IMG/VR virus record: IMGVR_UViG_644736364_000003 | Origin: a virus | Taxonomy: Duplodnaviria > Heunggongvirae > Uroviricota > Caudoviricetes | DNA: 46,137 nucleotides | Strand: one strand, 5' to 3' | Shown: piece after piece, positions 1-15,677 of the stretch | How positions within the stretch are numbered: position 1 is the stretch's first letter | How the letters are laid out: every line of letters begins with the position of its first letter | The notes under the pieces: model-generated | What the model saw: the letters and a program-made list of their open reading frames with translations, nothing else | Databases searched by the model: none | What the model was told of the DNA's origin: nothing | Program-made: the position numbers and the translations under genes

Positions 1-1164
1 TTACGCCTTCTTTATATCCTCCATAATTCCACAGTGGGACATATTTGGGACATTATCACCAAAAATGTCGTCTATTTTCCTTGCATGCTCTGTCAAATGA
101 TTAGGCGCAAGGTGAGCATACCTACGAACCATTTCTATGGACTCCCATCCGCCCATTTCCTGAAGCACAGATAATGGGACGCCTGACTGGATCAGCCAGC
201 TTGCCCAGGTGTGTCTGAGGTCATGGAAACGGAAATCTTCAATTCCTGCACGACGACAAGCTGATAGCCATGATGTCTTGCTGTCGATGCGCATCTTCCT
301 GACCGCAGGCGTTGATGTTCCATCTGCTCGCTTAGCCGCCTTGGTATGTACAAACACCCATTTGTGATGCTTGCCTATTTGATCACGCAACACTTTACAG
401 GCGGTATCGTTCAGCGCCACACCAATGGCGCGGTTTGATTTGCTCTCTTCTGGATTCACCCAGGCAACTCGTCGCTGCATGTCGATTTGTTGCCATTCCA
501 GATTTATGATGTTCGACTTTCTCAGACCAGTTGCCAGCGCAAACTTGACGACAGATTTCAGTGGTTCGGGGCACTCATCAATAAGGCGTTTTGCTTCCTC
601 CTTTTCCAGCCATCTGACTCGCTTGTTTCTGACCGCTGGTATCTTGATGACAGGCGCTTTTTCCAGCCACTTCCAGTCGCGTTCTGCAGCACGGAGAATG
701 GCCTTTATCATGGCAAGATGCTTTGCCTTTGTCTGAGTTGATACTGGCTTTGGTTCATAAACAGGCGGTTCTTTACCTTTCCTGATGGCGGCCTGAACTT
801 TCTGTTTCCATATTTCTTTCGTCTTTCTGTTATGCATTCTGCTTACAGCAGAGTAAATCTTTGCCTCCGAGATATCTTTAAGCCTTATACCCTCAAAATG
901 TTCAAGCCAGAACTCAATCCGGCTTTTATCTGAATCGAGAGATTTTTTATCAGCTTTTTCCTCAAGCCATCTTAGGCAGGCCTCTTCAAAAGTGACATCA
1001 GGTAAATCCCCTAGCTTTTCTACTCGCCAGAGTTCTGCTTTTCGCTTGTCGTGCAACTCCTGAGCTTGCCGCTTGTCCTTTGTGCCAAGAGATTCCTTAA
1101 TTCGTTTCCCGCCCGGGAGCGAATACGAGGCATACCATATTTCATTTCTGCGGAAGAGTGACAT
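1..1164 (-). CDS. int: Tyrosine site-specific integrase (lambda/P22 family)
   Basis: 387 aa; C-terminal catalytic region [11 protein letters not shown]...[19 protein letters not shown] typical of phage tyrosine recombinases; N-terminus resembles P22-type Int as recalled. Confidence 0.9.
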
Positions 1165-1391
1165 TTTCTTTCCTCTGTTATGCCATCACCCGCGCTCACC
1201 TGGACAGTATGCAGCGGAGACTGAAGCGCCGCAATGCAAGCTTGCCGTGTTGTGAGGTAAGGAGATTTTGGCTTGGTTGGATCTTTACGTGTTGCCTGTA
1301 GGCGGCCTGTTCGTATCCAGTTGGTGGCGGTTGGTCTGGATATCTTAAGAAACTGACAGGCCTCATCGAGTGTGAGGCTGTATGGCTCCAT
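1020..1391 (-). CDS. xis: Excisionase-like HTH protein (AlpA/Xis family)
   Basis: Start [31 protein letters not shown] with GAGGTG RBS; sits directly upstream of int; 3' end overlaps int by about 145 nt. Confidence 0.6.
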
Positions 1392-1696
1392 TATTTCACC
1401 TCTTGCTGTGTCATTGTTGAAAAATGGATACCAGCTCGTTGCTGCCAGACGATCCAACCGAGAGTCATATCCCATGCCATGTATTCGTTATCGCCGTTTT
1501 TTACTCTCCGACGATCTACTAAGTCACCGAAACGCTTTTCCATGAATAATTCATAGGCTTCGCGTTCATCTGGCTCTACTTCCAGAGATACGAGTGCGAT
1601 TTCATAAGCACGGCGCTCAATATCGTCTCGAACCTCTAGGCTGCTGATTCGTTCTTTGATTTCTTTAATCAGTTCTTTATTGGTAAATGTGGTCAT
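1391..1696 (-). CDS. Hypothetical early protein (YfdT-like by position and length)
   Basis: 101-aa ORF in leftward early operon, tightly packed with neighbours. Confidence 0.5.
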   Translation of the reverse strand: MTTFTNKELIKEIKERISSLEVRDDIERRAYEIALVSLEVEPDEREAYELFMEKRFGDLVDRRRVKNGDNEYMAWDMTLGWIVWQQRAGIHFSTMTQQEVK

Positions 1697-2058
1697 TATG
1701 CTCCAGCCTCCGGTGCTTTTGGCATTACTGCCCAGTGAGTGATATTGACGTTTTCAAGGTCCCCGACCTGAAATGTCCACTGCCATTCTCCGGTTTCTTT
1801 TTGTCCCCAGGTGTACCAGAGAGAACGCCAGCCAATCAGCCAGCCTTCTCCATTAGCATCAAATAACAGAACACTTTCATTTGCTGGTGGCAGTTCAGCT
1901 GACACTGGTATTATTTTGTTTTCCAGTGCCGCACATTTAGCTTCAAGCGCGTCGAATTTACGTACCAGGTACTCAGCATTTGTTTCGTTCACTTTCAGAT
2001 CTCGCGGTACACATTTCCCGCGAAGAAACCCTTCCATTTCGAAAACATTCATGCGCAT
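1696..2058 (-). CDS. Hypothetical early protein, DUF551-like C-terminus (YfdS-like)
   Basis: 120 aa; Trp-rich C-terminal motif GWLIGWRSLWYTWGQ...WQWTF; operon context. Confidence 0.5.
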   Translation of the reverse strand: MRMNVFEMEGFLRGKCVPRDLKVNETNAEYLVRKFDALEAKCAALENKIIPVSAELPPANESVLLFDANGEGWLIGWRSLWYTWGQKETGEWQWTFQVGDLENVNITHWAVMPKAPEAGA

Positions 2059-2585
2059 TTGCGTAACTCCGATAAATCGTTAAAACGTTCCATAAACATC
2101 CCGTAGGCATGACCCGGTGCCAGTGGAATCACGTTGAACATCTCTGTTGCCGGGATGCCTTCCAGTACAGGCCAGAAAGAGCCATCATCAAGCCCGAGAT
2201 CGCGGCGTTCGGTTGCCAGCATGATGAGATCGGCATATTTCACGGGTGTACTCATAACTGGGGGTAACCCGTATTTCTCACGGATTACGGCGTCTATTTT
2301 TTCTTCCATCCGTTTATAGTCAGGAAGAAGGCGTTTCAGTGGTGCGGGAATGTCCTGGCAATACGCTTCTGTTGCATCATGCATTAACGCTTCAAAAGCA
2401 AATTCCTGCGGCACCAGCTGGCTGCAAAGAACCGCATGTTGGGCGACGCTGTAGAAGTGCGAAAGATGACCGGCAAAGCGACAGATATTTGAAAGGGAAA
2501 CCGCGATATCGTTAATATCGATGTCGTCTTTATTTATCTTGTCATAATAAAAATGCTTCCCGGAAAAAGTTTTAATAAATGACAT
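2049..2585 (-). CDS. yfdR: HD-domain 5'-deoxynucleotidase-like protein (YfdR-like)
   Basis: 178 aa from MSFIKTF with GGAGAA RBS; His/Asp-containing motifs (HLSHFYSVAQHAV, ALMHDATE) consistent with HD phosphohydrolase. Confidence 0.6.
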   Translation of the reverse strand: MSFIKTFSGKHFYYDKINKDDIDINDIAVSLSNICRFAGHLSHFYSVAQHAVLCSQLVPQEFAFEALMHDATEAYCQDIPAPLKRLLPDYKRMEEKIDAVIREKYGLPPVMSTPVKYADLIMLATERRDLGLDDGSFWPVLEGIPATEMFNVIPLAPGHAYGMFMERFNDLSELRKCA

Positions 2586-2712
2586 TTTGTTCTCCACGTA
2601 TATGCACTGCACCGCGCTGAATTCTGGTAAAAGGAAGCCCTCACCATCCGGTGATTATTGAGTTAATTACGTTTCCATAAATGCCCCCGCAGGGGCATTT
2701 GCAGTAATGAAA

Positions 2713-3537
2713 TCAGGCGGTGAAAGTACCAATAAAGGTTTCTACTTTGCTGTCCTTGAATTTCTCAACAAGCAGATCACGAAATTCGTTAGCCATTTCC
2801 TCCTGCACTGCTTCCAGCTGAATAATGCGCAGAACCAGTACAGGACGATCGCCAGTGAGAATGCTGAGGCGTAATTTAAACGGACGTTCTTTCAGGCCTT
2901 CAAACGGAACGCATTTAAATTCAAATGCCACTGGCATAATGTCTTTGGTTTTCGCTTCGACAGACTCCATCAGGGAGCGTTTGCCGCTGAAGTCATTGTC
3001 TTCAAAATCAGCGGTCTGGTTTGCTTCAATCGTGATTTTACGGACTGCCGCAGCTGCTTTTGTTGCCTGAATAGCGTCACCATTAGCATCAAAGCCCACA
3101 AGGTAGTCGGCCCAGTCTTCAATCCATTCTGCCAGTGACTTCTGGGAGTTACGCTCGCCATTAACAGACAACAGAGCAGAGAACGGTGCTGTCTTTTTCA
3201 GTTTGAGAGTGGCGGTGTTATCTGCGTGACCTGGTTCATCAATAGTACCCAGATTAAGCACACTGACAGCACGCATATTATCAGCATCGATAAAGCAGCG
3301 GGTGCCTTCATCTGCAAGATCTTTAGAATAACGGGTAAAGTCATCGATGCTGGCAGTGGAAAGCGCACCACGGAAACGGAAGCGATTTAAATTAAATTTT
3401 TCCAGATCATGAATGCGGAAATTCTCAGGCAATGCCACAGCATCGGCACCAATCTTACTGATAATTTCATTAACACCCTGAGCAGAAATAAGGGCATGGA
3501 TTTGATTAATTGCGGTTGCGTCTAAGTTCTGAGACAT
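2713..3537 (-). CDS. yfdQ: YfdQ-like phage protein (DUF2303 family)
   Basis: 274 aa ORF with GAGGA RBS; length and position match the CPS-53 yfdQ homologue as recalled. Confidence 0.5.
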
Positions 3538-3602
3538 AATAAGTCCTCACTATATAAAGATATTCAGTGATGAGATAAATAATCAGTTTATTAAAAACGA
3601 TA

Positions 3603-3965
3603 TTAACGACCAGCTGCGCGGAGTTTTCCGTCAGGTTCACCGGCAAGAGTCAGTAATTGTCCCTGGTCTTCCTGCAGAATAGTCAGGCGACCACCGCGAT
3701 TGACATACATCGGCGTTTCGGTGGTGTCTTCTTCGGAAATTTTCCCGCGGTTAGTTGGGCGAACATATGAGAGTTTGTGTTTGATTTTCACACGGTTCTC
3801 ATCAAACGGTTCGATTTCCAGATTGAGTGAGACCTTCCCTTTGGTTTTCGTGTTCATCACACCGGAAGCGACTTCACTTAGAACTGCGCCGATTTTTGTT
3901 TCAAATACGCCGCCGTCCAGCTCCCCGATAAATGCCTGCACATCAGTACTGCGTTCACTAGCCAT
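3603..3965 (-). CDS. Hypothetical early protein (YfdP-like); first gene of leftward operon
   Basis: 120 aa from internal Met MASERSTDVQ with AGGAG RBS; the longer track ORF 3603..4151 lacks an RBS at its start. Confidence 0.5.
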   Translation of the reverse strand: MASERSTDVQAFIGELDGGVFETKIGAVLSEVASGVMNTKTKGKVSLNLEIEPFDENRVKIKHKLSYVRPTNRGKISEEDTTETPMYVNRGGRLTILQEDQGQLLTLAGEPDGKLRAAGR

Positions 3966-4611
3966 TTTGCTGCTCCTCATCATATCGACCCTGCAATGTC
4001 GGTTAGTTTCTCCACAAAACAGAGAAGAACACCTGCGGTGGTAGCCGCCCGGATGGATTGGGTTATGAGCCCGTCGTCCGATGATGTTCTTCTCTGTTTT
4101 GTAAAAAGAGCGGTACCAGCCGGAAGCAAGTGTACAAACTGGTACCGCCAAAGCAGTGGCTGTTGTGGTGACCGGTGCTGATCTCCGGCTTGCGGTTATT
4201 TCAGACTCTCACGGGCATTTAATTGCCCCGCCGAACAGCTCTTTTCCGCAATAGCTGCAATGTCTTTCGCGCATCAGCCTGCGCATTCACCACAACGCTG
4301 AGAGCACTTAGCCAGTTACGGCACCACACTTTGTCGCGGTTCCATAAATGCCCTCATCGTTGCACCCTGGTCTCTTCCCAGGCGTCAAACCGAATCGCCA
4401 CGCTGGTTAGGCGTCTTATCAGCATCCTCATTGACTTGCACATTCCGGCTATCTGGTTTGTTTGCCCGAGCAAGGAGTGGATTGTCCCCTTTAACGTCCC
4501 CAGACCGCTAACGACGCATGTGCCATACGCCGTGTTACAACCAAATTTTGTTAGTACCTTGTTTGTAGGTCTGGAGAGAAAGATAAAATGAAGTTGCGCA
4601 TTATGCAAGTG

Positions 4612-4634
4612 TTTTATTGCGAGATAAGCAATTT
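4612..4634. promoter_or_regulatory. Putative left operator (OL-like) repressor-binding site
   Basis: Motif TTTATTGCGAGATAAGCAAT nearly identical to a motif in the cI-cro intergenic region. Confidence 0.35.
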
Positions 4635-4687
4635 GGTGGGTAATGAAAAGCCACCTTCTGGTGGCTAATTGATGTTGAGGTAGGGGG

Positions 4688-5380
4688 TTAATTGTGTCGC
4701 TTAAGGGTCTGTGACTGACTGATTAAGACCTTTCCAAAGACCATAAACCGGTGTTCGTTTTCGCTGGTAATTCCCCATTCGCGGTAAATCTGATTATCAG
4801 AAATTACCAGCAGTTTATCAGGTATCATTTGCAGTCGTTTGACGTAAATTTTATCATCAAAACCAAATACATATATACCATCCCCATCAAACTGATTGAT
4901 ACTGATATCAACGAAGATGAGATCTCCTGGCTCAATGGTTGGACACATACTGTCCCCACGAACGTTGATAACTTTAATGTGATTTGCTGGTCGTCCACCA
5001 AACATCGATACAGCATTATCAGTTCTGTATTCAATGGCATGAATCACATCAATGACATCACCGCCCTGGATAAGGCCATTTCCCGCACTGGCACTGACAT
5101 CCAGCATTTCAATACGGAATACATCCTTCACCTGCGTAACATCCTCACTAATACTGTTTTTACATACAGTATTACTTTTGAGGTCTGAGGTAAAGAGATC
5201 AGCAATATCAACACCTAAGCTCCTGGCAATATTACTCAGGGCTTGTTCAGTGAATTGTTTCTGCTTACCTGTTTCGAGGCGCGAGATATTCGCCGCATCC
5301 ACTCCTATTGCTTCAGCGAGATCGGCGATTTTCATGTTCTTCGCCTGGCGAAGTTGTCTGACTCGATTTCCTATGTTCAT
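4688..5380 (-). CDS. cI: Prophage repressor, HTH-XRE plus S24 (LexA-like) peptidase domain
   Basis: 230 aa; N-terminal HTH (IADLAEAIGVDAANISRLETG), Ala-Gly cleavage site (ASAGNG), GDSM serine motif and downstream Lys (YVKRL). Confidence 0.85.
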   Translation of the reverse strand: MNIGNRVRQLRQAKNMKIADLAEAIGVDAANISRLETGKQKQFTEQALSNIARSLGVDIADLFTSDLKSNTVCKNSISEDVTQVKDVFRIEMLDVSASAGNGLIQGGDVIDVIHAIEYRTDNAVSMFGGRPANHIKVINVRGDSMCPTIEPGDLIFVDISINQFDGDGIYVFGFDDKIYVKRLQMIPDKLLVISDNQIYREWGITSENEHRFMVFGKVLISQSQTLKRHN

Positions 5381-5394
5381 GCGTTTATTACATT

Positions 5395-5450
5395 TCTTTA
5401 TTGCGCGTTAAGCAAATCAACTTGCGCAAAATATTTGCGTGAAATAATAT
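5395..5450. promoter_or_regulatory. Putative right operator/promoter region (OR; divergent cI and cro promoters)
   Basis: Repeated TTGCG/CGCAA inverted-repeat motifs (TTTATTGCGCGTTAAGCAAAT; CGCAAAATATTTGCG) in the 97-bp cI-cro spacer. Confidence 0.4.
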
Positions 5451-5477
5451 GCTCATCACGCAATATGTGGAGGTTAT

Positions 5478-5738
5478 ATGCAATCACCATTACGGAATGT
5501 GCGTAAGGCGCACGGATTTACTTTGCAGCATGTTGCTGCGGGCGTTCAGGTCAATCCAGCGACGCTGAGTCGTATTGAAAGACTGGAACAAATTCCATCT
5601 ATCGATCTTGCAGAACGTCTGGCCAATTTTTTTAAGGGTGAAATCAGCGAAATGCAGATTCTTTATCCGGCACGTTTTCAATCTAGCCAAAACCAGAATG
5701 GGTTTAAACCACAGGAACAGGAGGTAAGCCGTGGGTAA
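5478..5738 (+). CDS. cro: Cro-like HTH regulator
   Basis: 86 aa; HTH (FTLQHVAAGVQVNPATLSRIE); GGAGG RBS; divergent from cI. Confidence 0.7.
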   Translation: MQSPLRNVRKAHGFTLQHVAAGVQVNPATLSRIERLEQIPSIDLAERLANFFKGEISEMQILYPARFQSSQNQNGFKPQEQEVSRG

Positions 5739-6288
5739 GCATCATTGGAAAGTGGAAAAACAACCTGAGTGGTACGTGAAAGCTGTCAGAAAAACTATCG
5801 CGGCATTGCCTGGGGGTTACGCTGAAGCTGCTGACTGGCTGGATGTAACAGAGAACGCTTTATTCAACCGCCTTCGTGCAGATGGCGATCAGATTTTCCC
5901 GCTGGGATGGGCAATGGTTTTACAGCGCGCGGCTGGCACTCACTACATTGCGGATGCTGTCGCACAATCTGCTGGTGGGGTGTTCGTATCGCTTCCTGAA
6001 ATTGAGGAAGTAGAGAACGCCGATATAAACCAGCGCCTGCTGGAAGTCATCGAACAGATCGGGAATTACTCAAGGCAGATTCGTTCGGCAATCGAAGATG
6101 GGGTCGTGGAGCCACACGAGCAGACAGCAATTAATGATGAGTTGTATCTGTCAATTTCGAAGCTCCAGGAGCATGCAGCACTGGTCTACAAAATCTTTTG
6201 CGCTCCAGAAAAGAGTGACGCCCGCGAGTGTGCAGCTCCGGGCGTCGTGGCGTCGATTGCTTCTGGTTGTGGAGAAACTAACGCATGA
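5731..6288 (+). CDS. CII-like / YdaT-family regulatory protein (putative)
   Basis: 185 aa, GTG start after AGGAGG; position immediately after cro; family assignment from memory only. Confidence 0.4.
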   Translation: MGKHHWKVEKQPEWYVKAVRKTIAALPGGYAEAADWLDVTENALFNRLRADGDQIFPLGWAMVLQRAAGTHYIADAVAQSAGGVFVSLPEIEEVENADINQRLLEVIEQIGNYSRQIRSAIEDGVVEPHEQTAINDELYLSISKLQEHAALVYKIFCAPEKSDARECAAPGVVASIASGCGETNA

Positions 6289-6613
6289 ACAGTTTAACGG
6301 CAAATAACCGTTTGTCGCAACAGCTGGTGGTCAGCGTCGCTGAACACCTGTTGTTACGGCATGAATGCAGATTACCAAATCACCTGGCTGTAAGTAACCA
6401 CAGAGAACTTTACCTGACTGTGGGGGGCGAGTTGTGCAGGAACTTAACCGCTGGTTTCGTGACGGAAGAGGACTTTATGTTCATGTTATTCGTTGGGAGC
6501 CAGAAACACAGCGCGTTATCTATCTTCGCAAAGACTACCAGCATGAGTGCTTTAGTCCTTTGTGGAAATTCAGGCGTGATTTTGTTGAGTGTGAAGGACC
6601 ACCAGCACATTGA
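6285..6613 (+). pseudogene. Small gene apparently frameshifted at a G6 homopolymer (about 6422-6427); intact form would be about 110 aa
   Basis: ATG overlaps upstream stop (ATGA coupling); frame 0 open to 6430, then a protein-like ORF continues in the mod-2 frame (VVQELNRWFRDGRGLYVHVIRWEPETQRVIYLRKDYQHECFSPLWKFRRDFVECEGPPAH) to a stop near 6613. Confidence 0.3.
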
Positions 6614-6721
6614 TTCTGCCATTCCGGGACGTTACACTGTTCAGGCACCTTATAAAGCGGGTGTCGGGATTGGCGTCCTGGAATTGCATACGGCGACAAT
6701 TGGCGCGTTAGCGTCTTTTTT
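6610..6721 (+). promoter_or_regulatory. Leader element copy 1: sigma70-like promoter (TTGATT-17-TACACT) followed by intrinsic terminator hairpin (GGCGC-GTTA-GCGTC-T6); candidate short RNA/attenuator
   Basis: Promoter-like hexamers with 17-nt spacer; hairpin plus T-tract about 75 nt downstream; same architecture conserved in copy 2. Confidence 0.35.
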
Positions 6722-6887
6722 GTTGCTACAACTCAGCTATACCCAAATTATGGTGGGCTGGGTGGGGGCACCGAAAGGTGCGCCGGTTTCCGTATGCGCC
6801 GGTTACGCCAACCCTGCTCAGTTCACCACCAGCGAAATTGGCGTTTCCGGTGGTGGAAGTTATCCATTGCATACGGAGGCTGCCATC

Positions 6888-7433
6888 ATGGCTACGATCC
6901 CAACCCTCACTCAACCTGAAATTGCCATCGTTGATGGTCAGGCTGTTACTTCATCCCTGGCTGTTGCCAACTTCTTCTCCAAACGTCATGACGATGTACT
7001 GAAAAAGATCCGCACGCTTGAATGTTCCGCATCATTCACTGCCCGCAATTTTTCGGTGAGTGATTACACCGATTGCACAGGCCGCAAACTACCTTGCTAT
7101 CAAATAACCCGCGACGGCTTTGCGTTTCTTGCTATGGGTTTCACGGGTAAACGTGCTGCCCAGTTCAAAGAGGCATACATCAATGCCTTTAACCAGATGG
7201 AGAAACAGCTTTCAAAGCCCGCTGTACCGAGCGACGTTGCACATAACGCCAGCGTTCTCTATTCCTACATTTCATCAATTCATCAGGTCTGGCTGCAGCA
7301 GCTTTATCCTATGTTGGCAAAAGCCGAATCTCCGCTGGCTGTTAGCTTGTATGACTATATTAATGATGCTTCGGCGCTGGCCTGCCTCATAAATTTGTCG
7401 CTGAATCCTTCAGAGGTAAGGGGGCGTAAATGA
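6888..7433 (+). CDS. Rha-like phage regulatory protein, copy 1
   Basis: 181 aa from MATIPTL with GGAGG RBS; N-terminal motif (VDGQAVTSSLAVANFF...ITRDGFAFLAMGFTGKRAAQFKEAYINAFNQME) typical of Rha/pRha family. Confidence 0.7.
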   Translation: MATIPTLTQPEIAIVDGQAVTSSLAVANFFSKRHDDVLKKIRTLECSASFTARNFSVSDYTDCTGRKLPCYQITRDGFAFLAMGFTGKRAAQFKEAYINAFNQMEKQLSKPAVPSDVAHNASVLYSYISSIHQVWLQQLYPMLAKAESPLAVSLYDYINDASALACLINLSLNPSEVRGRK

Positions 7434-7475
7434 TCCGGAATATTTTCAAACTGTTTACCAATCGCCACCAGCATA

Positions 7476-7587
7476 TTGATTCTGCAATTCCGGGACGTTA
7501 CACTGTTCAGGCACCTTATAAAGCGGGTGCCGGGATTGGCGTCCTGAAATTCGCACATGCGCATAACCGCGCTTCAGCGGTTTTTTT
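7476..7587 (+). promoter_or_regulatory. Leader element copy 2: promoter-like TTGATT-17-TACACT plus terminator hairpin (ACCGC-GCTTCA-GCGGT-T7)
   Basis: Same arrangement as copy 1; terminator stem differs in sequence but keeps pairing (compensatory changes). Confidence 0.35.
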
Positions 7588-7750
7588 GCGCACGTTTCCT
7601 CACATCCAAATTATGGTGGGGCGTGCAGGGGCATCGAAAGATGCGCCGGGGTCATGTGCGACCGGTTACGCCAACCCTGTACGTCTCACCACCTCTGTGA
7701 TTGGCGTCCCATGTGGTGAGTTTTCAAAATTCGCACATGAGGATGTCACT

Positions 7751-8296
7751 ATGGCAACCACCCCTACCCAAACTCACCCTAAAATTGATGTTATCCATGG
7801 GAAGGCTGTTACCTCTTCTTTGGCCGTTGCCGAATATTTCTGCAAGCAGCACAAAAACGTTATTCAAAAAATCCAGACGCTTGAGTGCTCTGTTGAATTC
7901 ACTGAGCTGAATTTTCAGCCCAGTGATTACACCGATTGCACAGGCCGCAAACTCCCTTGTTACCAAATCACCCGCGACGGTTTTGCGTTTCTTGCCATGG
8001 GCTTCACGGGGAAACGTGCTGCCCGGTTCAAAGAGGCATACATCAATGCCTTTAACCAGATGGAGAAACAGCTTTCAAATCCCTCTGTACTGAGCGACGT
8101 TGCACATAACGCCAGCGTTCTCTATTCCTACATTTCATCAATTCATCAGGTCTGGCTGCAGCAGCTTTATCCTATGTTGGCAAAAGCCGAATCTCCGCTG
8201 GCTGTTAGCTTGTATGACTATATTAATGATGCTTCGGCGCTGGCCTGCCTCATAAATTTGTCGCTGAATCCTTCAGAGGTAAGGGGGCGTAAATGA
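7751..8296 (+). CDS. Rha-like phage regulatory protein, copy 2
   Basis: 181 aa from MATTPTQ; paralogue of copy 1 with near-identical C-terminal half. Confidence 0.7.
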   Translation: MATTPTQTHPKIDVIHGKAVTSSLAVAEYFCKQHKNVIQKIQTLECSVEFTELNFQPSDYTDCTGRKLPCYQITRDGFAFLAMGFTGKRAARFKEAYINAFNQMEKQLSNPSVLSDVAHNASVLYSYISSIHQVWLQQLYPMLAKAESPLAVSLYDYINDASALACLINLSLNPSEVRGRK

Positions 8297-8517
8297 TCCG
8301 GAATATTTTCAAACGGTTTACCAATCATACTTTCCGTTGTCCTCGTCCGGGTCAGTGGTACACCACGCCTGCAGGGCATGTTCTACGTGTTAGCCTGGTT
8401 GACCGTGAATGTCAGAAGGTGATTTGTGAACCGCTGGGCCGTAATTACCGCATCAGTATGCCGCTTATAGCCTTTTGCTCCGGAAAAAACATGAAGCATC
8501 TCGGAGGTGCAGCATGA
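8293..8517 (+). CDS. Hypothetical small protein (74 aa)
   Basis: ORF MIRNIFKRFTNH...; stop overlaps next gene start (ATGA); its first 11 codons are duplicated at 7430. Confidence 0.4.
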   Translation: MIRNIFKRFTNHTFRCPRPGQWYTTPAGHVLRVSLVDRECQKVICEPLGRNYRISMPLIAFCSGKNMKHLGGAA

Positions 8518-9332
8518 GTATGGAGCTGATGGTTAAAGCGATGAAAATTCGAGTGGGTAATCCATTGCGAAAACTGGTTCTGATCAAGCTGGCTGATAAT
8601 GCCAGCGATCAGGGTGAGTGCTGGCCCAGCTACCAGCATATTGCTGACCAGTGCGAGATTAGCAAACGTTCTGTGATGAATCATATTGCGGCCCTTTGTG
8701 AGTCCGGGCTGGTAAAAAAAGTCACCCGGAAAGGTGAAAAAGGTAACTCAAGTAATATCTATCTCCTTCATCTTGATGGTGCAGGAGATTCACTAGGGGG
8801 TAGTGCAAATAATTCACTATCTGGTGCAGCAAATTCACCAGGTAGTGCAGGAGTTGCACCAGGGGGTGGTGCAGGAGATTCACCCAGAACCAGTCACTCT
8901 TTTGAACCAGTCAAAGAACCAGTCAATGAACCAATAGCTGTTGGTGCATCTGCTGATGAGTCTGTGCGAGTTCGTTCAAACCGACCGGAATACTCTCCGG
9001 AGTTTGAGCAGGCATGGCTGGCATACCCCAAACGTGCTGGTGGCAATTCAAAATCTGCAGCCTTCAAAGCCTGGAAAGCCCGTTTGAATGAGGGGGTAAA
9101 ACCCGAAACCATGCTGGAAGGTGTGAAACGCTACGCGGGCTGGGTATCTGCGATGGGTAACAGCGGCACACAATTTGTGAAACAGGCTGTCACGTTCTTT
9201 GGTCCGGATCGTCATTTCGAAGAATCCTGGGAAGTTCCTGCGGTATCTGCAGCCAGACGCGAGGACCCGTACTTCAAAGCCAGTTACGACAACGTGGACT
9301 ACAGCCAGATCCCGGCAGGATTCAGGGGGTGA
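8514..9332 (+). CDS. Replication-initiator-like HTH DNA-binding protein with Gly/Ser-rich linker
   Basis: 272 aa from MSMELMVK after GGAGG; N-terminal HTH (PSYQHIADQCEISKRSVMNHIAALCESGLVKK); lies where lambdoid replication genes normally sit. Confidence 0.5.
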   Translation: MSMELMVKAMKIRVGNPLRKLVLIKLADNASDQGECWPSYQHIADQCEISKRSVMNHIAALCESGLVKKVTRKGEKGNSSNIYLLHLDGAGDSLGGSANNSLSGAANSPGSAGVAPGGGAGDSPRTSHSFEPVKEPVNEPIAVGASADESVRVRSNRPEYSPEFEQAWLAYPKRAGGNSKSAAFKAWKARLNEGVKPETMLEGVKRYAGWVSAMGNSGTQFVKQAVTFFGPDRHFEESWEVPAVSAARREDPYFKASYDNVDYSQIPAGFRG

Positions 9333-9334
9333 TC

Positions 9335-9823
9335 ATGAGTCTTTTGAATGAAGTTCAGAAATTCATTGAAGCCCATCCGGGGTGTACTTCCGGAGACATT
9401 GCGGATGCTTTTGCAGGTTACTCACGGCAGCGCGTTCTGCAGTCAGCAAGCAAGTTACGTCAGAGTGGGCGTGTGGCTCACCGTTGTGAAGGAGATACAC
9501 GCAGACATTTCCCGCGCCTGACTGAGAGAGCACAGGAGCCGGAACCACAACCAGTTCGTGAAACCAGACCTGTGCGCAATTTCTGTGTCGGCACTAACGA
9601 CCCGCAGGTGATTTTGTGCCTGACTCGCCAGGCGGAAGAACTGGAGTCTAGGGGCTTATTCCGTCGAGCTGCAACGGTGTGGATGGAGGCATTCCGTGAA
9701 AGCCACTCCCAGCCAGAACGAAACAATTTTCTGGCGCATCGTGAGCGGTGCTTACGGAAAAGCAGCAAGCGCGCTGCATCGGGTGAAGAGTGGTATCTGT
9801 CAGGGAATTACGTGGGGGCTTAA
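9335..9823 (+). CDS. PerC-like transcriptional activator family protein (putative)
   Basis: 162 aa; C-terminal segment LTRQAEELESRGLFRRAATVWMEAFRESH resembles PerC/Pch family as recalled. Confidence 0.4.
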   Translation: MSLLNEVQKFIEAHPGCTSGDIADAFAGYSRQRVLQSASKLRQSGRVAHRCEGDTRRHFPRLTERAQEPEPQPVRETRPVRNFCVGTNDPQVILCLTRQAEELESRGLFRRAATVWMEAFRESHSQPERNNFLAHRERCLRKSSKRAASGEEWYLSGNYVGA

Positions 9824-10476
9824 TGAGTAATAAATATTGCCAGGCGCTGGTGGAGCTGCGGAACAAACCAGCCCATGAACTGAAGGAAGTGGGCGATCAG
9901 TGGCGCACGCCGGACAACATTTTCTGGGGAATTAACACCCTGTTTGGCCCGTTTGTTCTGGATCTGTTCACTGATGGTGATAACGCCAAATGTGCCGCTT
10001 ATTACACTGCGGAAGACAACGCGCTGGCGCATGACTGGTCTGAACGTCTTGCGGAGCTTAAAGGTGCTGCCTTTGGTAATCCCCCGTACAGCCGCGCCAG
10101 TCAGCATGAGGGGCAATACATCACCGGCATGCGTTACATCATGAAACATGCCAGTGCCATGCGTGATAAAGGCGGGCGCTATGTTTTCCTGATCAAAGCT
10201 GCCACCAGCGAAGTGTGGTGGCCGGAAGATGCAGATCATATTGCTTTTATTCGCGGGCGTATTGGTTTTGAACTGCCTGCCTGGTTTATCCCGAAAGACG
10301 AAAAGCAGGTGCCAACAGGTGCTTTCTTCGCTGGTGCTATTGCTGTTTTCGACAAGACCTGGAAGGGACCGGCAATCAGCTACATAGGGCGCGATGAACT
10401 TGAGGCATGTGGTGAGGCGTTTCTGGCGCAGGTTCGCCAGCAGGCGGAAAAACTGGTCAGGGAGATGGCGGCATGA
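9823..10476 (+). CDS. Phage N6-adenine DNA methyltransferase (Dam-like, orphan)
   Basis: 217 aa; catalytic NPPY motif (GNPPYSRA); no adjacent restriction endonuclease. Confidence 0.8.
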   Translation: MSNKYCQALVELRNKPAHELKEVGDQWRTPDNIFWGINTLFGPFVLDLFTDGDNAKCAAYYTAEDNALAHDWSERLAELKGAAFGNPPYSRASQHEGQYITGMRYIMKHASAMRDKGGRYVFLIKAATSEVWWPEDADHIAFIRGRIGFELPAWFIPKDEKQVPTGAFFAGAIAVFDKTWKGPAISYIGRDELEACGEAFLAQVRQQAEKLVREMAA

Positions 10477-10799
10477 CGACGTTAACTCAATGCCAGCAGC
10501 AGGTGCTGGATATGCTGATTTCTTATCAGAAAGAACGTGGCTTCCCGCCAACCAATCAGGAGGTGGCAACCATGCTGGGATACCGTTCGGTGAATGCAGC
10601 GGTGGAGCATCTTCGCGCACTGGAGAAAAAAGGCGTCATCACGATAAAGCGTGGCGTGGCCCGGGGGATAACGCTTCATACTGCGATGAAGGACGACGAC
10701 AGCGAGGCGGTCGGGATTATCCGCGCACTGCTTGCCGGTGAGGAAAACGCAAGGCTGCGTGCAACCCACTGGTTACATGAGAGGGGCCTGAAAGTATGA
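10473..10799 (+). CDS. LexA N-terminal DNA-binding-domain protein (no peptidase domain)
   Basis: 108 aa; QQQVLDMLISYQKERGFPPTNQEVATMLGYRSVNAAVEHLRALEKKGVI closely parallels the LexA winged-helix DBD. Confidence 0.7.
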   Translation: MTTLTQCQQQVLDMLISYQKERGFPPTNQEVATMLGYRSVNAAVEHLRALEKKGVITIKRGVARGITLHTAMKDDDSEAVGIIRALLAGEENARLRATHWLHERGLKV

Positions 10800-11191
10800 A
10801 GCTAATACTGCCTTTTCCGCCCAGCGTGAACACGTACTGGCGACACCCCAACAAAGGGGCGTTTGCTGGTAAGAGCCTGATAAGCGCGGCGGGGCGAAAA
10901 TTCCAGAGCGCGGCGTGTGCAGCAATAGTTGAGCAGTTACGTCGTCTGCCGAAACCAACGTCGGCACCTGCTTCAGTGGAGATCGTGTTGTTTCCTCCGG
11001 ATAACCGGATCCGCGATCTGGACAACTATAACAAGGCGCTGTTTGACGCCCTGACCCACGCGGGTGTGTGGGAAGACGACAGTCAGGTGAAAAGAATGCT
11101 GGTGGAGTGGGGACCGGTTATCCCGGAGGGGAAGGTCGAGATCACTATCAGTAAGTACGAAAAAGCGAGTTGCAAATTAGCAACTCGGTAA
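10796..11191 (+). CDS. rusA: RusA Holliday-junction resolvase
   Basis: 131 aa; N-terminal LPFPPSVNTYW and Asp-rich motifs (DLDNYNKALFDALTHAGVWEDDSQV) typical of RusA. Confidence 0.85.
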   Translation: MKLILPFPPSVNTYWRHPNKGAFAGKSLISAAGRKFQSAACAAIVEQLRRLPKPTSAPASVEIVLFPPDNRIRDLDNYNKALFDALTHAGVWEDDSQVKRMLVEWGPVIPEGKVEITISKYEKASCKLATR

Positions 11192-11353
11192 CGGAATTGA
11201 GCAACACCCTAAATTTGGGTATTACCTCGTTAAAGATACTGTATTTATGAACAGTGTATCCTTGATAACTATTAAAAATCGCAGTAAGTTCATCCTGCAT
11301 CAACGAAAAGGGAGTGCAGTCCCGCTCGTGGATAAAAATTTGTGGAGAAACCA

Positions 11354-12169
11354 ATGAATCAGTTGCTTGTAATTGATGGCGTTTCTGTGCGCCAGTACTT
11401 CGAATCTAACTACTGTCTTAACGACCTTCAGAAAGCAGCTCTTCTTGCCGCTGGTGAGAATCGCTCCTCCCGTTCGCTGGAAGTTCACGAGTTTATGCGT
11501 CGTCCTGAAACGAAGGCTCTTGTGGAATTATTGGAAGAAGAAACTACGGGAGATTCCCGTAGTATTCCTGTCATCACCATTCAGGGGCGCAATGGTGGGA
11601 CGTATGTCTGTAAAGAGCTGGTCTATGCATATGCAATGTGGATCAGCCCGGCATTCAGCTTAAAAGTGATACGTACTTTTGATGCGCTTCATAATTCATC
11701 ACCAGAAGAAACCACATCCGACAAAATTAAATCCGGGGTCATTCTGCTTGAATCAGCAGCAAAGACTCTAAATCTGTCAAACTCCTCGAAACTTGGTGCA
11801 TACCAGAAATTATCAAAGGTAGCTGGTCTTCCTGAACTTATGCCGATCTATGCCATTGATGCACCTGCTGATGCGCCAGATGGTTCAAGCCGCCCTACGC
11901 TGTCGCTGAGTGCACTGCTGAAGCAGTATGGTATCCGCCTGACGGCTAATCAGGCATATCACCAGATGGCGAAGCTGGGGATCGTTGAACAACGCGAACG
12001 ATACAGCCGTACCGCGATTAACAACATCAAAAAATTCTGGTCGCTGACCGCGAAAGGCTGCATGTTCGGCAAGAACATCACCAGTCCTGCAAATCCGCGC
12101 GAGACGCAGCCGCATTTCTTCGAATCCCGATTTCCTGAGCTGTTAAAGCTGCTCGATACCGTTCATTGA
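11354..12169 (+). CDS. KilA-N domain protein (antirepressor-like)
   Basis: Start MNQLLVIDGVSV after GGAG RBS; KilA-N-like N-terminus; preceded by 150-bp AT-rich spacer. Confidence 0.6.
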   Translation: MNQLLVIDGVSVRQYFESNYCLNDLQKAALLAAGENRSSRSLEVHEFMRRPETKALVELLEEETTGDSRSIPVITIQGRNGGTYVCKELVYAYAMWISPAFSLKVIRTFDALHNSSPEETTSDKIKSGVILLESAAKTLNLSNSSKLGAYQKLSKVAGLPELMPIYAIDAPADAPDGSSRPTLSLSALLKQYGIRLTANQAYHQMAKLGIVEQRERYSRTAINNIKKFWSLTAKGCMFGKNITSPANPRETQPHFFESRFPELLKLLDTVH

Positions 12170-12170
12170 G

Positions 12171-13166
12171 GTGACTGTGAGAGCACTACTGACCCCTGAA
12201 ATTGCCCCGCGTATGGGGATCGTATTGTTCAGGCCAGGTTCAGAGCTGATGCCCCTGTTTATGCAGGGGCGTGTCCTGCTGGAGCCTGAGCCGGAGCGTT
12301 ATTCATCTTTCGCCAGTGGTGCCGTTCCGGCGGCATCACAACCGCTGGCGGATGATCCTGCCGTTCGGGCCGTGTTCCGCCATGAGGCAGTGATCCGTCG
12401 TGCTGGTGGCGTGGAATGTCTTGAAAGCTGGTTACTTCGTGAAAAAGGCTGCCAGTGGCCTCATTCCGGATGGCACAGCGAGAACATGACCACAATGCGA
12501 CACGCTCCGGGTGCAATCCGTCTGTGCTGGCACTGCGATAACCAGCTGCGCGATCAGTTCACGGAACGGCTGGAATCAATGGCAACGGATAACTGTGCCC
12601 GCTGGGTGTTGTCTGTTGTGCGTCGGGATCTCGGTTTTGATGACAGTCACGTTGTGACAATGCCGGAACTGTGCTGGTGGCTGATTCGTAATGACCTGGC
12701 GGATGCCTTACCGGAAAGTGCAGCCCGTAAGGCACTGAGATTACCGAAGCCTGTTGTGCCGTCTGTCACCCGGGAAAGTGACCTTGTGCCTTCGGTTCCT
12801 GCCACCAGCATCATCCAGGATAAAGCGAAAAAGGTGCTGGCGCTGAAAGTGGATCCGGAGTCGCCGGAGTCTTTTATGTTACGCCCCAAACGTCGCCGCT
12901 GGGTTAATGAAAAGTACACGCGCTGGGTTAAGACGCAGCCGTGTGCATGTTGTGGAAAGCCTGCTGATGATCCCCACCACCTGATAGGCCACGGTCAGGG
13001 GGGAATGGGTACAAAAGCGCATGACCTCTTCGTGCTGCCTTTGTGCAGAAAGCATCACGACGAGCTGCATGCGGATACCGTGGCATTTGAAGAGAAGTAT
13101 GGCTCCCAGCTGGAGCTGATATTTCGTTTTATCGATCGTGCGCTGGCAATAGGCGTGCTGGCCTGA
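12171..13166 (+). CDS. DUF968-family protein with C-terminal HNH-like Cys/His motif
   Basis: 331 aa; C-terminus CACCGKPADDPHHLIGHG...LPLCRKHHDELH; family recalled from Qin-type prophages (YdfU). Confidence 0.55.
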   Translation: MTVRALLTPEIAPRMGIVLFRPGSELMPLFMQGRVLLEPEPERYSSFASGAVPAASQPLADDPAVRAVFRHEAVIRRAGGVECLESWLLREKGCQWPHSGWHSENMTTMRHAPGAIRLCWHCDNQLRDQFTERLESMATDNCARWVLSVVRRDLGFDDSHVVTMPELCWWLIRNDLADALPESAARKALRLPKPVVPSVTRESDLVPSVPATSIIQDKAKKVLALKVDPESPESFMLRPKRRRWVNEKYTRWVKTQPCACCGKPADDPHHLIGHGQGGMGTKAHDLFVLPLCRKHHDELHADTVAFEEKYGSQLELIFRFIDRALAIGVLA

Positions 13167-13183
13167 TTTTGTGGAGAAAGTTG

Positions 13184-13555
13184 ATGCGTGATATTCAAAT
13201 GGTTCTTGAACGTTGGGGGGCATGGGTGGCAAATAATCACGAGGATGTGGAATGGTCATCTGTTGCTGCAGGTTTTAAGGGATTAATTCCTTCGAAAGTA
13301 AAATCCCGCCCGCAATGTAGCGATGACGATGGCCTGATCATTAGCTCTGCGATGACAGTTCTTAAGAAAAAGGAACCGTATCAATACGAATTACTGGAAA
13401 TGTATTATGTGTATGGGGTTACATTACGGGTGTTGGGGGTAAAACTGGGGATATCACTTAATCAGGTTGTTATCAGACTGCAGAAAGCTGAAGGGTTTAT
13501 TGACGGTTGTCTGGCAATGTTGGGGGTATCTTTAGAAATTGATTGTTACATATAG
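13184..13555 (+). CDS. Q: Late-gene antiterminator Q (small QuuD/phage-82-type)
   Basis: 123 aa from MRDIQMVLERWGAW with GGAG RBS; position immediately before late region. Confidence 0.65.
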   Translation: MRDIQMVLERWGAWVANNHEDVEWSSVAAGFKGLIPSKVKSRPQCSDDDGLIISSAMTVLKKKEPYQYELLEMYYVYGVTLRVLGVKLGISLNQVVIRLQKAEGFIDGCLAMLGVSLEIDCYI

Positions 13556-13630
13556 TAATAAATTCAATCAAAGTAAATAATCATATTTTATTATAACCTC
13601 CTGATGATACCTGTTCATTGGGAGGTTATT

Positions 13631-14248
13631 ATGGATAAAAATGTAGAGCATGTATTAGTTGATGCAATTGAAAATAAGCAATCTTTAACAGTCGTTTACT
13701 TAGGAGGGAGCCAGCCCGGAACATTAAGGAATATTTCTCCGATTAGTATAAATGGGGATAAATTGCGGGCAAGATGCCATAGTTCTGGAGCAGTAAAGGT
13801 TTTCAATCTTGGGAAAATACAGTTACCCAGTGACTCCTGCGCGGTATCTATGCACTATGGAGATTTAGAAGTTAAAGCTTATGAGACGATGCAGAGCGTA
13901 AATGACAACTTTCATGCCCTTTATCCTGAAGGACGATGGGGTGTTGATTTTAATGAGCATCGCTTTGCTTTATTTGATTTTTTTAAAAACGGGAAACGAA
14001 AAAAAACGGCATTTATGGCAATTGAGTTCAGGGAAAGAGATGAAGAGAAAATAATAACAGGTGTAACAATTGATATTGGTATATCTGGAACAGTGATTTC
14101 TGAGAAGTCCCGAATCCCAAAAAGACGACCATGGGTAGTGGTTGGTCCCGAACACGGAGAATACAGTACTTATTCAACTTTGGACAAGGCTGCTACAGCG
14201 TTTTTTGAGAGGCTTTCGTTGATAGCATCCGGCCTGGAAGATAATTGA
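13631..14248 (+). CDS. Cargo (moron) protein of unknown function with WYL-like N-terminal motif
   Basis: 205 aa; GGGAGG RBS; AT-rich relative to flanks; N-terminal pattern LTVVYLGG...LRNISPISI...LRARCHSSGAVKVFNLGKI fits WYL-domain consensus by eye. Confidence 0.45.
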   Translation: MDKNVEHVLVDAIENKQSLTVVYLGGSQPGTLRNISPISINGDKLRARCHSSGAVKVFNLGKIQLPSDSCAVSMHYGDLEVKAYETMQSVNDNFHALYPEGRWGVDFNEHRFALFDFFKNGKRKKTAFMAIEFRERDEEKIITGVTIDIGISGTVISEKSRIPKRRPWVVVGPEHGEYSTYSTLDKAATAFFERLSLIASGLEDN

Positions 14249-14377
14249 TTTTATGTTTGGTATTCAGAGTTCGCCGTGCTTAAGAAAGTCAAGATTCTAA
14301 AAATACTGAATGAGCTACTTGTGTTATAACAAAAATGCTATTAGTGTGTTAAGAGTGGTTACTTCGCCACACAACTT

Positions 14378-14402
14378 AAACCCGCCACTGAGCGGGTTTT
14401 TT
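14378..14402 (+). terminator. Rho-independent terminator (tR'-like candidate)
   Basis: AAACCCGC-cactga-GCGGGTTTTTT: 8-bp stem with GC core followed by T6. Confidence 0.7.
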
Positions 14403-14526
14403 GTACCTGTAAACTTGGTGCAGTACAGTAAACACGCTGGTGGTCGTGAATACTGGCTTTTTATCTTGCTGGCTTTTTAGACAAGAGTTATTGGTATGTC
14501 ACGTTAACCGGAAAGGGTAAAAAGAC

Positions 14527-14724
14527 ATGCTGAAACAGCAGGATATGACAGAAACCGCCAGAGTTGTGTTTGATGAATTAAGCGTTACCGAACCGGCGAC
14601 AGTCGGGGAGATTGCGCAGAATACTTACCTTTCACGCGAACGCTGCCAGTTAATACTGACCCAGCTTGTTATGGCGGGTCTGGCAGACTATCAGTGCGGT
14701 TGTTACAGACGCCTTCAGTCCTGA
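14527..14724 (+). CDS. Small putative winged-helix protein (65 aa)
   Basis: ORF with HTH-like segment ATVGEIAQNTYLSRERCQLILTQLVMAGLA; weak RBS. Confidence 0.35.
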   Translation: MLKQQDMTETARVVFDELSVTEPATVGEIAQNTYLSRERCQLILTQLVMAGLADYQCGCYRRLQS

Positions 14725-14858
14725 AGGCTTTTTATTTGTGGTGAATGGGCGGCTGGTGGGGGGGCGACACCTGTCAGTCCTTTGCTTATGTGTTGATGAT
14801 AATTTACCTTTTGGGGCTATAATTGAGCTAACCAATTGCTAATGAAAGTAAAATTATA

Positions 14859-15566
14859 ATGGCTGTTGTCTGTTCAGTTATCATGGTTTGCTCCCCAATT
14901 AATATTTTTCTTGAAAAGGATACGTTGTCACTTAAGCCAGGCTCAGTTGTTCTGGCCACCAAATGCATCAGGGAGCTTTTCCTTATGCATTATGGCAAAG
15001 TTAAAATTGTCGATATAAGCGAATCCGTCGTAAGTCAATATCTGGAAAGTCAGCATAAGCTGACGAGGACTCGTCTGACTGACATTCCGCTTTACCTGTT
15101 GCTGGAACCCAACAATCCTGCGTTGGCTGCGGCTTTAATTACCAGCCAGGGATTTTCCGGAGAGGCCACGGATATGTTTCTTATGATGGCCTGCCTGTCT
15201 CTGTTTGAAACAGATGAACGGATGTCATTGTTTTTAAGTGGATGTTTATCCAGCATAAGTGCCAAAGTCAGGGCGATAATTCAGACAGATATATCAGCAA
15301 GCTGGACGCTTGGTGCGATTGCTCTACAGTTGCATATGAGTGAGAGTTTGTTAAAGACAAAACTGAAAAATGAAGGGGGCATGTTCAGTCGCTTGTTGCT
15401 GGAAGAGCGGATGCGTGTTGCTGTAAATATGTTATGTTCCCGGCATGGACAGGCTATAGCAGAAAAATGCGGTTATTCAAGCAGGTCCTACTTTATTTCT
15501 GTATTTCACCGCTATTATGGCTTCCCGCCAGACAGATATGTATCCAGGCAAGGGCTTGATTATTGA
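14859..15566 (+). CDS. AraC-family transcriptional regulator (AppY/GadX/YdeO-like prophage moron)
   Basis: 235 aa; C-terminal AraC HTH pair (...YSSRSYFISVFHRYYGFPPDRY); N-terminus MAVVCSVIMVC resembles AppY MDYVCSVVFIC as recalled; low GC. Confidence 0.8.
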   Translation: MAVVCSVIMVCSPINIFLEKDTLSLKPGSVVLATKCIRELFLMHYGKVKIVDISESVVSQYLESQHKLTRTRLTDIPLYLLLEPNNPALAAALITSQGFSGEATDMFLMMACLSLFETDERMSLFLSGCLSSISAKVRAIIQTDISASWTLGAIALQLHMSESLLKTKLKNEGGMFSRLLLEERMRVAVNMLCSRHGQAIAEKCGYSSRSYFISVFHRYYGFPPDRYVSRQGLDY

Positions 15567-15670: not shown

Positions 15671-15677
15671 TCACATA

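Follow-up and report, generated by a model that had tools for sequence, protein, structure and literature searches.

The five genes yfdP, yfdQ, yfdR, yfdS and yfdT of the Escherichia coli K-12 prophage CPS-53 (KplE1) have already been studied for an effect on replication initiation. Purified YfdR binds the initiator protein DnaA of the host at its domain I, an interaction in which DnaA Phe46 is important; multicopy yfdQRS or yfdQRT inhibits initiation at oriC in vivo, yfdP being dispensable (PMC4776307, Noguchi and Katayama 2016), and extracts oversupplied with YfdQRST are likewise inhibited for initiation in vitro (PMC4776307). The authors themselves proposed a role in the ancestral phage, but the effect on DnaA appeared only on overexpression and, in their words, may be an artefact; deletion of yfdQRST from K-12 caused no change (PMC4776307). 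The outcome proposed for YfdR is that of lambda P and Bacillus subtilis SirA, which bind DnaA and block host initiation. SirA and YfdR both depend, within DnaA domain I, on Phe46 or its equivalent (PMC4776307), whereas lambda P binds domain III and doubles as a helicase loader; neither protein is related to YfdR in sequence. A first-pass annotation of the DNA considered here did not bring up this YfdR-DnaA link, the best experimental lead.

Outside K-12, the yfdR/yfdQ/yfdP trio is common in early-left operons (PMC12315714). The whole module is orf28-orf32 of the Shigella phage SfV, its genes are sb35-37 in ST64B and gp37-39 in LLS, and it also occurs in SfIV and in Stx2c phages; in the plaque-forming phages SfV and mEp460 it lies in an equal early-left arrangement, mEp460 lacking a stand-alone yfdT. 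The module proteins of ST64B and LLS have diverged much further than those of the E. coli copies, which are near-identical.

The window, i.e., the whole 46,137-nucleotide stretch analysed, is a lambdoid prophage adjoining a tRNA-Arg gene of the UPEC E. coli strain MS7163, and its late genes are lambda-like. Five leftward open reading frames at 1391-3965 had been annotated as a counterpart of the CPS-53 cluster, and all five were found there:

3603..3965, minus strand: yfdP, 120 aa, first gene of the module and partner of yfdQ
2713..3537, minus strand: yfdQ, 274 aa, DUF2303 family
2679..2700, minus strand: GC-rich hairpin without a U run, in the yfdQ-yfdR gap (sequence and fold)
2049..2585, minus strand: yfdR, 178 aa, HD-domain phosphohydrolase / DnaA-binding protein
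1696..2058, minus strand: yfdS, 120 aa, coiled-coil N-terminus and DUF551
1391..1696, minus strand: yfdT, 101 aa, without a known domain

The proposed correspondence in order and length (120, 274, 178, 120 and 101 aa) is exact, and the protein comparison with K-12 bears it out at 97-100% identity: 98.3% for YfdP, 98.9% for YfdQ, 99.4% for YfdR, 100% for YfdS and 97.0% for YfdT. At the nucleotide level, megablast matched 1391-3965 to CPS-53 of MG1655 over 100% of its length (2575 bp) at 97.6% identity (E = 0), the K-12 annotation under the match reading yfdP, yfdQ, yfdR, "phage protein" and yfdT; 42 of the codon differences are synonymous and nine non-synonymous. [quoted passage not shown] The description of the genes as tightly packed holds for yfdR/yfdS and yfdS/yfdT, which overlap by 10 nt and 1 nt, but not for the yfdP-yfdQ and yfdQ-yfdR junctions, where the gaps are 65 nt and 127 nt, respectively, the latter containing the GC hairpin. 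The five genes are thus confirmed as the yfdP-yfdT cluster of CPS-53, already studied, in a near-identical copy; the finding is correct but ordinary.

The surroundings of the module are those of an early-left operon:

1..1164, minus strand: integrase, downstream end of the leftward gene string
1020..1475, minus strand: xis-like HTH_17 open reading frame, downstream end of the leftward gene string
4594..4631, no strand assigned: two TTGC-N7-GCAA palindromes, candidate left operator / PL region (motif count)
4649..4666, minus strand: intrinsic-terminator-like site just past the cI stop codon
4688..5380, minus strand: CI-like repressor (HTH and S24 peptidase), same-strand upstream neighbour of the module

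The leftward genes lie between the CI-like repressor and xis/int, downstream of the operator-like palindromes, so that both gene order and upstream repressor operators agree with a lambdoid PL operon, and the label "early-left" given to the module at first pass is a reasonable one. TTGC-N7-GCAA occurs seven times in the window against 1.7 expected; besides the two copies at 4594-4631, one at 5401-5415 sits between cI and cro, and operator-like palindromes are thus found on both sides of cI. We infer that PL lies at 4594-4631, where no consensus sigma-70 promoter was scored. No N homologue was found among the window ORFs, and Pfam and PHROG searches found no recognisable recombination gene in the early-left region.

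SfV matches this arrangement: its int, xis and orf28-32 are disposed as here, and it is 96.6% identical from xis through a terminator-like hairpin that precedes yfdP. Its immunity region differs, having orf33 and other terminators where the prophage has ~620 nt without an annotated gene. CPS-53 differs as well: it carries IntS/TorI rather than the SfV-type int/xis present here, and it has lost the whole stretch between a point 19 nt upstream of yfdP and the interior of yfdO, including a leader RNA, the operators, cI, cro and the Rha genes.

Two elements upstream of yfdP proved to be conserved beyond the E. coli copies:

4007..4111, minus strand: structured leader RNA of ~105 nt (inverted repeat, fold, covariation)
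4101..4149, minus strand: terminator-like hairpin GGCGGUACCAG...CUGGUACCGC followed by UCUUUUU, directly 5' of the leader hairpin

In the leader, two small stem-loops are closed by a long basal stem, which has 23 pairs in the consensus that was tested; the apical core is invariant, and the fold z-score is -7.24. Among 22 diverse variants, 96.3% of cells were paired, compared with 38-60% in slid controls, and 39 cells were compensatory, compared with at most 10; a covariance model scored 111.8 bits on the minus strand and 34.5 on the plus strand. In other lineages, the terminator-like hairpin has a different GC-rich stem with compensatory changes but the same U run. The only Rfam match to the leader, mir-3617, was rejected as spurious (22 bits, cut-off 107). 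This unannotated, covarying leader RNA and the terminator-like hairpin before it are new here.

The leader stands at the start of early-left operons in a large number of lambdoid phages and prophages, and was traced in LLS (which is N-less), ST64B, phiNP and SfV. It resembles the put RNA of HK022, a cis-acting antiterminator, in being structured with two adjacent stem-loops and in lying early in the leftward operon of an N-less lambdoid phage, and a put-like mechanism has been proposed for such phages by the authors of the LLS study. However, the covariance model finds no convincing match in HK022 (the best, 18.9 bits, is a plain hairpin), nor is there a second copy downstream of PR in the window, and a put homologue is not supported. 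The leader could instead mark a site of processing, for example, or act in antitermination as an element with no relation to put.

Our first search for related loci returned only those with 99-100% identical YfdQ; diversity was reached through the sequence of PDB 9o7m and the leader motif. Among the 83 leader-bearing phage loci so compared, no gene behind the leader is as constant as yfdR, which is present in 79 and in 18 of the 83 occurs without yfdP-yfdQ. Some phages have the leader joined straight to the point of the 2679-2700 hairpin, and in these yfdP-yfdQ is absent. Both yfdS and yfdT are found in only part of the related loci. YfdS passes the DUF551 model (PF04448) marginally, with 22.2 bits against a cut-off of 22.0 over residues 50-117, and YfdT belongs to phrog_660, a family without a known function. 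A paralogous relationship that would explain the interchangeability of YfdS and YfdT was considered and dropped (BLASTP E 0.32, not significant). The cluster is a composite of the yfdP-yfdQ pair, yfdR and a variable yfdS/yfdT part, which is also new here. Within E. coli, the module matches 3036 of 5426 complete genomes, 1935 of them with at least 80% coverage.

The pair itself has a wider range, being present in elements of Xanthomonas, Vibrio and Methylobacter as well; it is a two-gene phage unit in its own right, and a much older one. YfdQ matches Pfam PF10065 (DUF2303) over residues 7-272 with 307.9 bits (cut-off 26.6), and the family comprises 1771 clusters at 50% identity, almost all of single-domain proteins of ~270 aa. 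An AF2 model (pLDDT 74.1) has no fold neighbour, and the sole solved relative is the 36-chain deposited structure 9o7m, titled "YfdQ Protein". We found no paper carrying that code; a cryo-EM preprint on the CP2-like phage PhiXacm4-11 was considered as its source, but its accession codes are different ones and YfdQ does not appear in it. CP2 ORF38 and ORF36 were not found in the PDB. It is possible, if somewhat doubtful, that the leader is an undescribed cis-acting regulator and that YfdP-YfdQ forms a new kind of large early-phage assembly.

The identity, gene order, position and distribution of the module follow directly from these comparisons; its function is argued from the K-12 experiments. 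In our preferred reading, to which we assign a probability of roughly 0.5, the module is the yfdPQRST cassette of SfV/mEp460/ST64B-type phages in intact context, expressed on induction and curbing host initiation through YfdR and DnaA. Inactivation of the CI repressor would allow leftward transcription to start near the operator pair at 4594-4631, and the transcript would pass the terminator-like hairpin and the leader RNA, so that the five genes would be expressed before xis and int. YfdR would then bind domain I of DnaA at Phe46, in competition with DiaA and DnaB, and YfdR, YfdQ and either YfdS or YfdT might together hold back new rounds of host chromosome replication during phage development; YfdR also keeps an intact HD active site, and a weak action on nucleotides has been reported for it. 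Action on DnaA is the most likely of the functions considered and is taken from experiments on a K-12 protein 99.4% identical to this YfdR. The conserved HD ligands and the 42 synonymous against nine non-synonymous differences from K-12 also count in favour of this reading, and the gene set that the YfdQRST initiation inhibitor requires (intact yfdQ and yfdR with at least one of yfdS and yfdT) is present. As K-12 homology ends 19 nt upstream of yfdP, CPS-53 is without leader, operators and cI, a loss that fits the absence of a deletion phenotype in K-12 (PMC4776307). The loci with yfdR but not yfdP-yfdQ (18/83) fit an obligatory partnership of YfdQ and YfdR poorly. With no consensus PL promoter, a hairpin before yfdP, no N homologue and a single copy of the leader, the route by which transcription reaches the genes can only be inferred.

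It is also conceivable, though unlikely in our judgement, that YfdR is mainly an enzyme, an early HD-domain dNMP phosphatase that reshapes the deoxynucleotide pool or removes an unwanted nucleotide and thereby aids phage replication. The first-pass annotation, from which this idea comes, named it an HD-domain 5'-deoxynucleotidase; the HD domain is there and the PGAP name is "5'-deoxynucleotidase", but scores fall below the YfbR family cut-offs. The HD motifs are present on alignment, as H50, H69-D70 and D119 align with Atu1052 (PDB 2gz4, E 3.7e-14). These four ligands, together with the YfbR-type residues E73 and D78, are conserved in aligned close homologues ~65-88% identical to the query, and across 16 homologues the H...HD...D positions vary little or not at all. 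In PHROG and PGAP the family is named as a deoxyribonucleoside 5'-monophosphate phosphatase, PMC4776307 cites published assays of K-12 YfdR, and the constancy of yfdR behind the leader (79/83) is also in favour of an enzyme. Against this, YfdR remains below threshold on Pfam HD_3 (17.0 bits, cut-off 22.5), YfbR-like PF12917 (24.3, cut-off 25.9) and NCBIfam NF003009 (19.9, cut-off 122). It shares the HD..E....D.P.P.K and VKxAD motifs with YfbR, the HD-domain 5'-deoxynucleotidase encoded on the E. coli chromosome, but the similarity is local (33% over 40 aa, pairwise E 9e-5) and does not extend to full length. [quoted passage not shown] Deleting yfdR from an engineered strain left CMP yield unchanged (PMC10870394), and a phosphatase would cut the nucleotide supply that a replicating phage needs. 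A similar objection applies to a device for anti-defence, in which the HD hydrolase would destroy a nucleotide immune signal or, as the first-pass annotation suggested, counter nucleotide-depletion defences: conversion of dNMP to nucleoside removes nucleotides and would worsen depletion, none of the five proteins has any match in PADLOC-DB, we found no link in the literature, and the cluster has been kept promoter-less in K-12. That HD domains hydrolyse many nucleotide species and that temperate phages often use early accessory genes against defences are general points, and even with the high variability of the S/T part we consider such a role very improbable.

Somewhat less probable than a mainly enzymatic YfdR is that the cassette, above all YfdP-YfdQ, is an unrecognised replication or recombination accessory replacing the missing Red/Erf-type module. 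The early-left region is without a recognisable recombination gene, the window contains 18 Chi sites, as for phages with "no Rec module" (PMC12315714), in Xanthomonas phage CP2 and Vibrio phage VvAW1 the P-Q pair is surrounded by genes for Erf, exonuclease and SSB, and deletion of yfdQ reportedly causes weak MMS sensitivity. However, the cluster is found also where the phage has a complete Rec module, and not every phage that lacks such a module has the cluster (PMC12315714), such a function was judged unlikely by the authors of that study (PMC12315714, Genome Research 2025), and there is no similarity to a recombinase, nuclease or SSB in either sequence or fold: compared with Exo/Bet/Gam, Erf, RecET and Sak4, the five proteins gave no Pfam, PHROG, NCBIfam, PDB or fold match.

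Annotated, widespread and studied in K-12, the cluster is already known; as first stated, the finding adds little. Its value is in the context, because the prophage shows what CPS-53 has lost, namely repressor, operators and leader, and provides a natural setting for the DnaA-binding results, in which the genes would form an early set switched on at induction. The live relatives mEp460, SfV and LLS are suited to asking whether a temperate phage stops host initiation through DnaA domain I, and two concrete leads, the P-Q pair as a separable unit and the conserved leader, bear on how early-left genes are controlled in N-less lambdoid phages.

Five ORFs occupy positions 1391-3965, each preceded by a Shine-Dalgarno-like motif, and their number and lengths are as the first-pass annotation had stated:

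3603-3965, minus strand, yfdP, 120 aa ORF
2713-3537, minus strand, yfdQ, 274 aa ORF
2679-2700, GC hairpin within the yfdQ-yfdR gap
2049-2585, minus strand, yfdR, 178 aa ORF
1696-2058, minus strand, yfdS, 120 aa ORF
1391-1696, minus strand, yfdT, 101 aa ORF

The tight packing also described there holds at the 3' end, where yfdR and yfdS overlap by 10 nt and yfdS and yfdT by 1 nt, but not at yfdP-yfdQ (65-nt gap) or yfdQ-yfdR (127-nt gap). Using megablast against complete E. coli genomes, the module is a 100% match in MS7163 and a 97.6% match over its full length in K-12 MG1655, where the genes under the match are yfdP, yfdQ, yfdR, a "phage protein" (yfdS), and yfdT. The proteins are 98.3% (YfdP), 98.9% (YfdQ), 99.4% (YfdR), 100% (YfdS), and 97.0% (YfdT) identical to those of K-12, and the codon differences across the module are 42 synonymous and 9 non-synonymous; the proposed resemblance to yfdP-yfdT is thus confirmed and not due to chance. 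The module sequence was matched in 3036 of 5426 complete E. coli genomes, with coverage of at least 80% in 1935.

The window is a lambdoid prophage adjoining a tRNA-Arg gene in uropathogenic E. coli MS7163. Its left end carries an integrase and a xis-like gene, and it also has head and tail genes of lambda type, three tRNA genes, and a Q antiterminator. The large terminase subunit (23709-25635) is annotated in MS7163 as frameshifted, and the prophage may therefore be unable to package DNA. The xis-like gene is a 151-codon minus-strand ORF (1020-1475) that has an HTH_17 excisionase-type domain and overlaps the integrase start; PGAP shows only a 66-nt pseudogene fragment there (1326-1391), and the SfV annotation gives the equivalent ORF as a full xis. 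Two tandem Rha-family genes (6285-8296), the second annotated without its N-terminus, have near-identical C-terminal halves, and the two share the repeat TTGCACAGGCCGCAA at 7073 and 7936. Downstream of Q lie a tRNA-Met, tRNA-Arg, tRNA-Arg cluster (15596-15845) and then a SASA-family carbohydrate esterase (16337-18298), which recalls the layout of Stx-converting phages.

The functional phage SfV shares the int-xis-orf28-32 layout at 96.6% identity, and the module is present in SfIV, mEp460, Stx2c-converting phages, and several new E. coli phages. The CPS-53 prophage remnant of K-12 shares only window positions 1329-3984 and 9257-10089: homology stops 19 nt upstream of yfdP (window 3984; L001:8594) and restarts in the O-like/PerC/methyltransferase genes (yfdO, yfdN, and yfdM). 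CPS-53 is thus a deletion derivative, having lost everything from that point to inside the O-like replication gene, the control region included, and the MS7163 prophage displays the architecture from which it arose.

The module lies between the CI-like repressor gene and xis/int, on a single strand throughout. Seven copies of the palindrome TTGC-N7-GCAA lie in the window (1.7 expected), and the left control region comprises:

5401-5415, TTGC-N7-GCAA palindrome between cI and cro
4688-5380, same strand as the module and xis/int, CI-like repressor (HTH and S24 peptidase)
4649-4666, terminator-like site after cI
4617-4631 and 4594-4608, TTGC-N7-GCAA palindromes just downstream of cI
4101-4149, minus strand, terminator-like hairpin with a U run, upstream of yfdP
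4007-4111, minus strand, leader RNA of ~105 nt directly after that hairpin; its basal stem is long and its apical core invariant

The palindrome pair and the terminator-like site after cI are arranged as in a left operator-promoter region; no sigma-70 consensus promoter scored at this candidate region, so the leftward early promoter PL is one that we infer. The ~720 nt between yfdP and cI (3966-4687) have no annotated gene in MS7163 and hold no N-like ORF. The mEp460 annotation places two small plus-strand ORFs in the equivalent region, and a 25-codon minus-strand ORF at ~4209-4286 has two CxxC-like spacings.

In the consensus that was tested, the leader basal stem has 23 pairs. Pairing held in 96.3% of cells over 22 diverse variants (38-60% with the partners slid), and 39 cells were compensatory, where the slid controls gave no more than 10. 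Conserved U-G pairs, together with covariance-model scores of 111.8 bits on the minus strand and 34.5 bits on the plus strand, show that the predicted RNA belongs specifically to the leftward transcript. The terminator upstream of it varies in sequence with lineage, its GC stem and U run being kept. SfV, ST64B, phiNP, LLS, and over 100 viral contigs have the leader, in some cases before a first gene other than yfdP; neither CPS-53 nor the PGAP annotation of MS7163 includes it. The authors of the LLS work had suggested a mechanism like that of put, the RNA antiterminator of HK022, for such N-less phages; by the covariance-model test the leader is not a put homologue, as HK022 gave no convincing match and the window has a single copy. 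The leader was not found in Rfam.

The yfdP-yfdT cluster is composite. All 70 viral contigs selected by YfdQ carry yfdP, yfdQ, and yfdR, yfdS and yfdT being variable. Among 83 contigs selected by the leader motif, 61 have the P-Q-R trio, 18 have yfdR without P-Q, one has P-Q without yfdR, and three have neither combination. In the 18 contigs that have yfdR without P-Q (including L098, L107, L112, and L130) the leader is joined to yfdR, and several joints sit at a hairpin homologous to that of the yfdQ-yfdR gap, which suggests hairpin-mediated module exchange. Adjacent P-then-Q genes with no HD gene occur in Xanthomonas phage CP2, Vibrio phage VvAW1, and a Methylobacter genomic locus:

L091:2639-3892, L092:4491-5738, L086, L088, and L089, P-then-Q pairs without YfdR in Xanthomonas, Vibrio, and Methylobacter elements
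L091:3068-3892, CP2 ORF37, YfdQ homologue

YfdQ matches DUF2303 over its full length (307.9 bits). Its family forms 1771 clusters at 50% identity, almost all of them of single-domain proteins some 270 aa long, and has a set of near-invariant polar residues. YfdS passes DUF551 marginally (22.2 bits, cut-off 22.0), YfdP and YfdT matched no family in a local Pfam copy, and their PHROGs are families of unknown function. The only solved relative of YfdQ, PDB 9o7m ("YfdQ Protein", 36 chains), is ~37% identical to the window protein and 94-99% identical to proteins of CP2-like Xanthomonas phages; we found no publication for this entry, and it was missing from the fold libraries searched. A DUF2303 protein was reported, from mass spectrometry, to be associated with the virion of Burkholderia phage JC1 (PMC9144972).

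Noguchi and Katayama found that yfdQRST in multicopy suppresses over-initiation; purified YfdR bound DnaA, with DnaA Phe46 important for the interaction, and extracts oversupplied with YfdQRST inhibited oriC initiation in vitro. In K-12, deletion of these genes had no effect, and the authors allowed that what they saw on overexpression could be artefactual (PMC4776307). We give a probability of about 0.5 to a reading in which, on induction, transcription from the cI-proximal side would express the cassette ahead of xis and int, and YfdR, with the aid of YfdQ and of YfdS or YfdT, would bind DnaA domain I and so restrain host initiation. Gene identity and context are observed directly, the transcription route to the yfd genes is inferred, and the DnaA step rests on those overexpression experiments with K-12 proteins.

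YfdR may also be an enzyme, as its conserved HD site suggests: H50, H69-D70, and D119, with E73 and D78, are kept across aligned homologues, and YfdR aligns with the HD protein Atu1052 (PDB 2gz4; E 3.7e-14) and locally with YfbR. The yfd similarity and the HD motif, the two points on which the first-pass annotation was to be judged, are thus both present. [quoted passage not shown] Somewhat less probable still is a hidden replication or recombination accessory. The P-Q pairs of CP2 and VvAW1 do neighbour Erf, exonuclease, and SSB genes. The yfdR/yfdQ/yfdP trio is common in lambdoid early-left operons, including those of phages with no recombination module, and a recombination role was judged unlikely (PMC12315714, Genome Research 2025). 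This prophage has no early-left recombination module and has 18 Chi sites (GCTGGTGG; 13 plus, 5 minus; 1.9 expected from shuffles) at 1883-20507, all within the first 20.5 kb, fitting the "Chi-rich, no Rec module" class of that study. The first-pass annotation identified the yfd cluster correctly, but its functional speculation is unsupported: a dNMP phosphatase runs in the opposite direction to countering nucleotide depletion, and PADLOC matched none of the five proteins, leaving an anti-defence device very improbable.

With these two studies, the gene cluster and its standing as an early-left module of phages were both known before; the P-Q pair and the leader RNA are the only parts that might repay more work.
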